Positions 4,445 through 4,638 of a stretch of 11,366 nucleotides of DNA are shown here, in pieces. Location: assembly GCA_964640155.1 (NCBI GenBank), contig CAZXEQ010000011.1:1-11366 (forward strand). Direction: 5' to 3'. This stretch comes from an uncultured bacterium (GTDB lineage: Bacteria > Auribacterota > JACPWU01). The position numbers and the translations under genes were made by a program. Each line of letters opens with the position of its first letter. The first letter of the stretch is position 1. The notes beneath the pieces are model-generated. The model worked only from the letters and a program-made list of their open reading frames with translations. It made no database searches and was not told where the DNA came from.

Positions 4445-4638
4445 TCGCACCCGCTGGACCCCGATGTGAATTGGGGAGCTGCCGTATCACGATAGTTTTA
4501 TGATCGTGATTTACCATAATGGAGATTATGGTAAAGGCAGCATTGGTCTGTCCCCGCAATGTTGGATAAGTCGACTTATCCGCCCCTTGTGGGCTTGACG
4601 TTGCGGGGCTTTAGGCCAGGCCAAACCAGCGGGTGCGA
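4445..4638. other. Structured domain B: 194-nt multi-branched fold closed by a 13-bp helix (candidate ncRNA or folded ssDNA site), function unknown
   Basis: Closing helix 4445-4457 tcgcacccgctgg with 4626-4638 ccagcgggtgcga. Inside it: hairpin 4459-4476 (cccc/gggg). Three-way junction 4478-4483 gctgcc with 4536-4541 ggcagc, enclosing hairpins 4486-4510 (atcacgat/atcgtgat) and 4512-4533 (taccataat-GGAG-attatggta). Second junction 4552-4559 ccccgcaa with 4601-4608 ttgcgggg, enclosing 4564-4581 (ggataagtcgacttatcc) and 4582-4594 (gccc/gggc). All helices listed are perfect Watson-Crick, about 59 bp in total. Confidence 0.6.

Follow-up and report, generated by a model that had tools for sequence, protein, structure and literature searches.

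The question raised by this locus is whether a 194-nt segment of a small replicon, at positions 4445-4638 of the window (the whole 11,366-nt stretch of DNA analysed here) and hereafter called domain B, serves as a structured RNA or as a folded single strand of DNA, and which protein would recognise the folded form. The original prediction, made from the sequence alone, hedged between an RNA and a single-stranded DNA substrate of a primase or a tyrosine recombinase.

Bases 11348-11366 of the window duplicate bases 1-19, and the circular replicon is thus ~11.35 kb long. Domain searches confirmed that it encodes the primase and the two tyrosine recombinases that had been named at the outset, and it also carries an XRE-type HTH gene, a small DUF5659-like ORF, a BrnT/BrnA toxin-antitoxin pair, and a 969-aa protein and two small proteins without a family match. 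The first recombinase matched Pfam Phage_integrase (E 2.5e-38) and the NCBIfam XerD/XerC models (E about 1e-64, under the equivalog cut-offs), and the second matched the XerC subfamily model (E 4e-82); over both tandem proteins, E values against the NCBIfam XerC/XerD models ran from 1e-61 to 4e-82, under the equivalog cut-offs. The best PDB match of the plasmid recombinases was XerD, and the integron integrase model scored them at 91-98 bits against a cut-off of 265. Judged by these matches, both are Xer-family recombinases. No HUH Rep domain was found among the ORFs of the replicon that were searched, a tRNA and tmRNA search found none, and the non-coding region held no iterons or tandem repeats. 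The GC skew of the replicon showed no clear origin and was uninformative on a source of single-stranded + strand DNA; the A+T-rich tract upstream of domain B is a possible unwinding region.

The closest relative of the replicon is L003, a 10.4-kb contig from a groundwater Chlamydiae MAG whose primase is 72% identical, with homology extending from domain A to the second recombinase and the remainder consisting of unrelated cargo. The second-closest replicon, P0003 (ENA ERZ27296333), has the same layout with a 1.1-kb gap. The primase family as a whole comprises hundreds of contigs of 4-12 kb, with some members lying within megabase contigs; those contigs that bear an organism label are assigned to Chlamydiota, Planctomycetes, Omnitrophica, Spirochaetes, Desulfobacteraceae and Puniceicoccus. 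The gene order HTH (- strand), small ORF, primase and recombinase(s) is kept across relatives, and cultured distant relatives of the backbone include an 11.3-kb plasmid of Lonsdalea populi and plasmids of Leptospira. Domain B occurs once only in the window and once only in L003. A blastn query with the entire non-coding region matched neither PLSDB plasmids nor INPHARED phages, and exact-pattern scans of IMG/VR had no matches. A metagenome scan with GACGTTGCGGNGCTTTAGG returned 15 loci, about the chance number estimated beforehand from the pattern length, of which nhmmer found 0 to be related. A profile search of IMG/VR for the primase recovered generic phage DnaG loci only, and these were used as negative controls in the comparison of hairpin frequencies.

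The MFE fold of the + strand of domain B contained the 13-bp closing helix, the single hairpin and the two three-way junctions that had been described for it, with five hairpins in all, and it included the GGAG loop as well as the palindrome of 18 nt (GGATAAGTCGACTTATCC, 4564-4581; Table 1). Two further parts of that description had to be corrected: instead of about 59 bp without a mismatch or G-U wobble, the full fold contains six G·U pairs among its 75, and a T·C mismatch in the long stem P3 in the register common to the homologues; and the fold is not equally good on either strand, since all six G·U pairs lie on the + strand, the fold of the - strand has none, and the + strand is the stabler by 17 kcal/mol with RNA parameters or 5.8 kcal/mol with DNA parameters. 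Folding energies were -110.5 kcal/mol with RNA parameters, against -63 ± 4 in shuffles (z -11; 0 of 200 shuffles), and -63.7 kcal/mol with DNA parameters (z -12.9). Domain B was the most structured 180-nt stretch of the replicon, and its homologue likewise topped L003, where the + strand has a single G·U pair and the - strand has none. The window, L003 and a third, partial copy (L117) all have a T·G wobble in P4; its counterpart on the - strand would be a mismatch of A and C, which marks the + strand as the one that folds. Small - strand ORFs that overlie the element (4389-4559 and 4526-4702) were dismissed, the indels relative to L003 not being multiples of three.

Table 1. Coordinates of domain B, of its surroundings in the window, and of D/C hairpin pairs in related loci (locus coordinates for the last four rows)
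Feature	Coordinates	Strand	Remarks
Non-coding region	3866-4841		976 nt
A+T-rich tract	4300-4380		between domains A and B; read from sequence
P1 closing helix, 5' arm	4445-4457	+	TCGCACCCGCTGG; perfect pairing with 4626-4638
hp1	4459-4476	+	7-bp hairpin; loop GTGA; one G·T pair
First three-way junction	4478-4541	+	P2 (GCTGCC/GGCAGC) around hp2 (4486-4510) and hp3
hp3, D hairpin	4510-4535	+	TTTACCATAA-TGGAGA-TTATGGTAAA; palindromised XerD-type dif arm
Second three-way junction	4543-4624	+	encloses hp4 and hp5
P3, long stem	4543-4553 with 4614-4624	+	second junction
P4	4554-4563 with 4597-4606	+	second junction
hp4, C hairpin	4564-4581	+	(ATGTT)GGATAA-GTCGAC-TTATCC; palindromised XerC-type arm
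hp5	4582-4594	+	small G+C hairpin GCCC-CTTGT-GGGC, 3' of the C hairpin
Bulge GGCTTTA	4607-4613	+	conserved, 7 nt; second junction
P1 closing helix, 3' arm	4626-4638	+	CCAGCGGGTGCGA; pairs with 4445-4457
XRE-type HTH gene	4842-5246	-	
DnaG-type primase	5793-8363	+	856 aa, long C-terminal replicative domain; backbone replication protein (context)
Xer-family tyrosine recombinase 1	8579-9520	+	313 aa; presumed trans-acting partner of domain B
Xer-family tyrosine recombinase 2	9504-10418	+	304 aa; presumed trans-acting partner of domain B
D/C hairpin pair, L010	147-171 and 207-238		
D/C hairpin pairs, L012	1530/1615 and 8195/8262		
D/C hairpin pairs, L013	6461/6561 and 13263/13324		
D/C hairpin pair, L110	18082/18178		

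Sequence homologues of domain B comprised two complete copies, in the window and L003, and the partial copy in L117, which ends inside hp2; the covariation check on homologues that had been suggested showed the pairing to be kept in both relatives by compensatory changes. At ~78% identity L003 has the same architecture, with ~20 compensatory changes that affect both sides of a pair; of ~75 pairs only one, an A·G mismatch in P2, is broken. In P1 both partners differ at 10 of 11 pairs, and a 9-10 bp duplex, ATCGCACCCG, whose sequence occupies the 5' arm in the window occupies the 3' arm in L003, an end-to-end flip; a GGGTGCG/CGCACCC motif is found as well in the closing helix of the structured domain of the locus L109. 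Flip/flop of the parvovirus kind and site-specific inversion were considered for the flipped helix and rejected, as neither rearrangement swaps the two arms. The counterpart of hp1 in L003 is a 9-bp hairpin in which one pair is compensated and a G-C pair takes the place of the wobble; 5 of 8 pairs of hp2 are compensated on both sides, with loops of 9 nt versus 4 nt; hp3 has two covarying pairs and hp4 two pairs changed on both sides; and several wobbles are exchanged for Watson-Crick pairs between the two sequences. L117 adds a G-C to U-A change in P3 and two adjacent pair swaps in P4. An alignment of the three sequences over 42 pairs had 99.2% of its cells paired and 7 two-sided changes, matched by 0 of 500 column shuffles, and sliding the partners by 1-3 columns lowered the pairing to 27-43%. 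No covariance model of domain B was built, there being two full copies only and the distant sets differing in architecture.

The loops and linkers of the element vary, hp3 having GGAG, CTCA or CAAG and hp5 having 5 nt versus 3 nt (GCCC-GCA-GGGC in L117), and sequence conservation is concentrated in the stems, namely hp3, hp4, P3, P4 and the P1 duplex, even though the last is flipped. Conserved stems with variable loops are the pattern expected where a protein recognises duplex DNA, which argues for a DNA site, although the conservation of the stems could be due in part to the short evolutionary distance. Conserved non-coding sequence extends beyond domain B on both sides between the window and L003.

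The original prediction had passed over the dif-like arms of hp3 and hp4. The dif site of Escherichia coli reads GGTGCGCATAA-TGTATA-TTATGTTAAAT, that of Bacillus subtilis ACTTCCTAGAA-TATATA-TTATGTAAACT, and that of F. alni CACGCCGATAA-TGCACA-TTATGTCAAGT (PMC3025954), and sites predicted for Chlamydiae read ACGTCTGATAA-TATGTA-TTATGTTGAAT and ACGTCTGATAA-CATATG-TTATGTTTCTT (PMC3025954 supplement). With dif-arm PWMs made from eight published or predicted dif sites, the XerD matrix ranked the D hairpin (hp3 and its counterparts) first replicon-wide in the window, L003, L010, L012 and L013, and the XerC matrix ranked the C hairpin first or second in L003, L010, L012 and L013; the C arm of the window, ATGTTGGATAA, scored poorly and fell outside the top five. 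In L003 hp3 reads TTTAACATAA-CCTCAG-TTATGTTAAA, and the C hairpin reads ATGTCGCATAA-TGCGCA-TTATGCG in L003 and L117, ACGTCGCATAA in L013 and CGTGCGCATAA in L010; the XerC arms for comparison with hp4 are GGTGCGCATAA of E. coli and the predicted ACGTCTGATAA of Chlamydiae. By sequence, then, hp3 is an XerD-type arm and hp4 an XerC-type arm, each paired with its own complement. A scan of the window for ATAA-N-TTAT yielded only D'-N6-D (4510-4535) and C-N6-C' (4559-4586), and no C-N-D site. Two other uses of the hairpins were tried and rejected: a Holliday-junction mimic, the centre-proximal ends of both arms pointing to loops and not to junctions, and a single-stranded DNA promoter, suggested by TTGACA in some D hairpins, a motif that is absent from the window and L003.

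The spacing of the arms bears on the form in which they are used. The core site of a tyrosine recombinase on duplex DNA has a fixed centre of 6-8 bp, whereas a hairpin tolerates any small loop. From ATAA to TTAT, the D hairpins listed have spacers of 3 to 6 nt and the C hairpins spacers of 6, 6, 6, 8, 8, 9, 10 and 11 nt, the extra bases of the long C spacers being self-complementary (TCC-ACGA-GGA, TCT-ACCGG-AGA, TAG-CTG-CTA). Spacers of 3 to 11 nt fit hairpins and not a fixed duplex centre, and this range, taken together with the compensated nested helices and the wobbles confined to one strand, points to the folded single strand as the form under selection.

Relatives with primase identities of just 47-55%, and with otherwise unrelated non-coding sequence, again have a D and a C hairpin next to the backbone (Table 1). 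Such hairpins were ~12-fold commoner in loci of the family than in a 1.7-Mb set of unrelated loci, whose matches were composed of A+T only. The backbone of L012, like that of L013, lies between two such sets on opposite strands, in the inverted arrangement D C ... C D, and the two sets of L013 have inverted-repeat sequence in common. A small hairpin analogous to hp5 lies beside the C hairpin in L013 (+ strand) and in set b of L012 (- strand); in L012 it is this small hairpin, 3' of the C hairpin, that places the second set on the opposite strand. A different arrangement is seen at the start of L116, where GACATAA-CAGATT-TTATGCGC is followed ~100 nt on by GCGCATAA-AATCCTG-TTATGTCA, so that positions 1-155 hold two inverted C-centre-D sites that pair as one 24-bp stem with a bulged centre. 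L109, a 2.76-Mb contig, has two highly structured direct repeats of ~350 nt lying ~11.3 kb apart, the first before a complete backbone unit and the second before the start of another, whose HTH gene is cut off where the locus ends; we infer two tandem integrated units, and a second primase of the family, P0022, is listed with a longest contig equal in length to L109. The more distant backbone relatives, the Lonsdalea and Leptospira plasmids, had no such hairpins.

We consider it somewhat more probable than all other outcomes combined, at roughly 0.55, that domain B is a folded +-strand DNA recombination site with split half-sites, XerD and XerC, for the plasmid recombinases; that it acts as DNA rather than RNA, that the recombinases bind it and that they react on it would all be parts of this reading. 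Domain B would then be a cis-acting DNA element and not an RNA gene. The plasmid primase-helicase would replicate from the adjacent A+T-rich region and leave the + strand single-stranded, which would fold through three long-range helices (P1, P2 and P3/P4) and two three-way junctions into a scaffold that displays two duplex half-sites on separate hairpins, XerD-type on hp3 and XerC-type on hp4, with hp4 stacked on P4 so that an 11-bp C arm spans the junction. One Xer paralog would presumably bind hp3 and the other hp4, and two folded copies, or one folded copy and a duplex dif-type site, could bring together the two C and two D arms of an Xer tetramer. Each hairpin might be cleaved in its 5' arm after ATAA, at the boundary with the loop, with exchange of the loop strands and multimer resolution or integration/excision as the possible outcome. 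To our knowledge no tyrosine recombinase acts on half-sites placed on separate hairpins, and this chemistry is therefore speculative.

That domain B is instead a structured non-coding RNA read from the + strand, such as a pre-primer or an RNA that controls plasmid replication, in which the dif-like stems are coincidental or are transcribed DNA sites, appears unlikely to us. Strong covariation, the +-strand-specific G·U bias, a very stable RNA fold and conserved non-coding sequence on both flanks are all in keeping with an RNA, as is a weak sigma-70-like match, GTAACA-17-TATCAT (4410-4438), that ends 7 nt before P1 and would place a start at ~4445. However, that match is not conserved, L003 having ~66 extra nt there, no terminator was found, and no promoter or terminator flanking the element is common to both homologues. 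That no Rfam family had been recognised at the outset was borne out, with 0 matches over the whole window at the gathering threshold and, at E up to 10, 16 weak matches between 3800 and 5500 that lay far under their gathering scores, none of them in 4445-4638. These 16 were to hairpin/microRNA-type models and a few others. In addition, variable loops and junctions on stems that keep their sequence are the opposite of what typical functional RNAs show, and arm matches ranking first in five replicons are hard to explain for an RNA. We favour DNA because the stems conserved in sequence are those that match protein-binding arms while loops and linkers vary, because the P1 duplex is kept though flipped and the GGGTGCG/CGCACCC helix recurs in L109, and because Rfam, terminator and promoter evidence is either absent or, for the promoter-like match, weak and non-conserved. 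Of the initial hedge, then, it is the branch of single-stranded DNA and a recombinase that gained ground, through the dif-like arms, the Xer-family recombinases, the conserved stems and the lack of Rfam or transcription signals; the argument first offered for it, that the fold is symmetrical between strands, was wrong given that the wobble pairs are confined to the + strand.

Quite improbable, too, is a single-strand initiation signal, in which the + strand fold would be a G4- or ssiA-type loading and priming site for the plasmid primase, starting for example at the conserved GGCTTTA bulge; such a role could coexist with binding of the recombinases. It would suit a strand-specific cluster of hairpins that adjoins an A+T-rich tract and precedes the gene of a DnaG-type primase by 1.2 kb, a conserved single-stranded bulge between stable helices, and the two opposite-strand sets that flank the backbone in L012 and L013, which recall paired ssi sites. 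Known ssi signals, however, are much smaller than domain B, no similarity to plasmid or phage records was detected at blastn sensitivity, the XerD- and XerC-type arms would be left unexplained, and more distant plasmids with the same primase are without such elements. The results neither support nor exclude a primase signal.

Least probable is that hp3 and hp4 are ordinary duplex sites, D-D and C-C palindromes each recognised, as duplex or local cruciform, by one of the recombinases as a homodimer, the inverted repeats around them being accessory sequence: the core-site-like 6-bp centres of both palindromes in the window, L003 and L117 fit this, as do the near-palindromic sites reported for single-recombinase Xer systems (PMC3325230), but it is at odds with the spacers of 3 to 11 nt and their self-complementary extensions in relatives, with nested helices P1, P3 and P4 kept by two-sided changes over 60-170 nt, and with wobble pairs on one strand only.

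If the recombination-site reading of domain B is right, the arrangement, which may be termed a split dif, might, tentatively, add a third kind to the folded single-stranded recombination sites known from integron attC and CTXphi attP, one by which widespread small primase plasmids and integrated elements of Chlamydiota and neighbouring phyla recombine single-stranded replication intermediates with their own Xer pair. We know of only two classes of folded-single-strand sites for tyrosine recombinases, integron attC and CTX-type attP, both of which have influenced how resistance and virulence genes spread. A further architecture would mean that single-stranded DNA recombination is wider and more varied than thought, here with split half-sites and element-encoded Xer paralogs in uncultured small replicons of one family, toxin cargo being frequent among them, and it would provide a defined substrate for assembly of an Xer tetramer on non-contiguous arms. 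It would also mean that very stable, covarying folds in the non-coding regions of plasmids are not necessarily RNAs.

Among known systems, the attP(+) of CTXphi is described as a folded single-stranded attachment site with dif-like arms that is used by XerC/XerD in integrative mobile elements exploiting Xer (IMEX; PMC3442271). Domain B resembles it in that a strand-specific fold of + strand DNA creates duplex Xer arms similar to dif. The layout of attP(+), with inverted C-centre-D sites that anneal, is found exactly in the relative L116 and is absent from the window, where the C and D arms are not contiguous and lie on separate hairpins of two three-way junctions; and whereas CTXphi relies on the host XerCD and on single-stranded DNA made by an HUH Rep, this replicon encodes two Xer paralogs and a DnaG-type primase, with no HUH Rep detected. 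Integron attC sites are recombined by IntI as a folded bottom strand whose structure is conserved more than its sequence, according to PMC5027507 and PMC8946536. The substrate proposed here would likewise be single-stranded and defined by structure, but attC consists of one imperfect hairpin that has extrahelical bases as well as R and L boxes, domain B is a 194-nt multi-branched fold of near-perfect helices, and the plasmid recombinases score far under the integron-integrase models. In comparison with dif and the plasmid multimer-resolution sites cer, psi and pdif, the arms of domain B match the XerD and XerC arms of dif and, as a resolution site would, it lies on a plasmid beside Xer-family genes; it differs in that the XerC and XerD arms do not adjoin a common 6-8 bp centre as one contiguous duplex, each arm being hairpinned by itself.

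The complementary-strand origin of phage G4 and ssiA/ssiB of RSF1010 are clusters of hairpins on one folded strand that serve a dedicated primase. Domain B is like them in its strand-specific hairpins, its stabler + strand and the adjoining A+T-rich tract and primase gene, and unlike them in its far larger size, its junctions and dif-type arms, and its lack of detectable similarity to known records. The inverted terminal repeats of parvoviruses and AAV are T-shaped DNA folds with a three-way junction and near-perfect palindromes, the stems of which are recognised by the replication protein; they are terminal on linear single-stranded DNA and act with an HUH Rep, whereas domain B is internal to a circular plasmid that encodes tyrosine recombinases. 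Literature searches turned up no account of an element of this kind, and split half-sites on a covarying junction scaffold appear to be unprecedented: domain B would work like CTX attP(+) and attC, yet it departs from the defining features of both.

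The closing helix of domain B, the five-hairpin fold of the window, is shared with L003 (the closest relative, a 10.4-kb contig of a groundwater Chlamydiae MAG): the same duplex of about 10 bp, ATCGCACCCG·CGGGTGCGAT, pairs window positions 4445–4457 with 4626–4638 and L003 positions 718–728 with 891–901, and relative to the domain that it encloses it is flipped end to end between the two. A simple inversion and a flip/flop were both considered as the origin of this flip, and neither yields such an arrangement. The flip suggests that the closing duplex is itself recognised. The pair GGGTGCG/CGCACCC also closes the structured domains of L109, a locus within a 2.76-Mb contig. 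Inside domain B, the sole conserved single-stranded segment is the bulge GGCTTTA between helices P4 and P3, whose sequence is the same in L117 (a partial third copy of domain B) and AGCTTTA in L003. The longest conserved stretch that the window and L003 have in common (42 nt, one mismatch) includes this bulge; L117 departs from it at several further positions. The bulge is a candidate for a protein contact or for the start site of the primase.

The second strong fold of the window, domain A, is closed by a perfect helix of 20 bp (TCTCCTTTCCTTCCCCCTTC / GAAGGGGGAAGGAAAGGAGA) that encloses a small hairpin beginning GACATC-ACGA (3984–3999) and a 16-bp hairpin (4037–4083) with a 15-nt loop, TCCCTCCTCGGACCT. 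Compared with L003, the stem of the 16-bp hairpin covaries and its loop is kept; an identical loop on a different stem, in reversed orientation, was found at 247–301 of the related locus L010, and in L119 nhmmer returned matches resembling domain A in both orientations, with a similar, non-identical loop. The loop contains CCTCC, which is anti-Shine-Dalgarno-like.

Coordinates of structured elements and genes in the window and related loci
Feature	Locus	Position	Remark
Domain A	Window	3959–4122	Second strong fold
Bulge between P4 and P3, 7 nt	Window	4607–4613	GGCTTTA
DUF5659-like ORF, ~100 aa	Window	5530–5832	Overlaps primase gene start (5793–8363)
Hairpin between primase stop codon and first recombinase gene	Window	8430–8454	
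Same	L003	4801–4829	
Same	L112	4514–4541	
BrnT-like toxin and CopG/BrnA-like antitoxin pair	Window	10476–11029	Downstream of recombinases
Two direct-repeat structured domains	L109	7952–8270 and 19270–19640	~350 nt each
D and C hairpin sets	L012	1530–1641 and 8195–8283	
D and C hairpin sets	L013	6456–6626 and 13149–13351	
Two inverted complete dif-like sites	L116	1–155	D'-CAGATT-C' and C-AATCCTG-D

Positions 1–19 of the window are repeated at 11348–11366, and through this 19-bp terminal overlap the contig closes into a circle of about 11,347 bp. The 969-aa ORF, whose listing begins at position 3, probably has its start ahead of the circle junction, at an ATG near 11126. The DUF5659-like ORF and the primase gene overlap by about 40 nt, an arrangement kept in most relatives (L010, L012, L109, L110, L114 and L116). 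The post-primase hairpin is perfect, with 10–13 bp, and occupies a common position, directly behind the primase stop codon, in three replicons, its sequence differing among them; on its 3' side the window carries the short tandem repeats CGCTTCA (×2.3, 8477–8492) and TTGCGACC (×2.8, 8513–8534). It may act as a terminator or attenuator, or serve as a site from which expression of the recombinases is regulated. Places equivalent to that of the toxin–antitoxin pair hold other such pairs in relatives (RelE, PIN/RHH, HicA).

With about −217 kcal/mol per 430 nt, the structured repeats of L109 are extremely stable; they are spaced by about 11.3 kb. The first is followed by a complete backbone unit and the second by the start of another, the HTH gene of which runs past the locus end, in what looks like a tandem integrated array. 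In L012 and L013, the backbone for replication and recombination lies between two sets of D and C hairpins (palindromised XerD- and XerC-type dif arms) whose order is inverted (D C ... C D), those of L013 having inverted-repeat sequence in common, hairpin flanks included; the cargo outside them comprises RHS/YD-repeat toxin genes, toxin–antitoxin genes and a Y1 transposase. In L116, the complete dif-like sites are separated by about 100 nt; as duplex they would be inverted sites around a 100-bp segment, and folded they form a forked hairpin resembling CTX attP.
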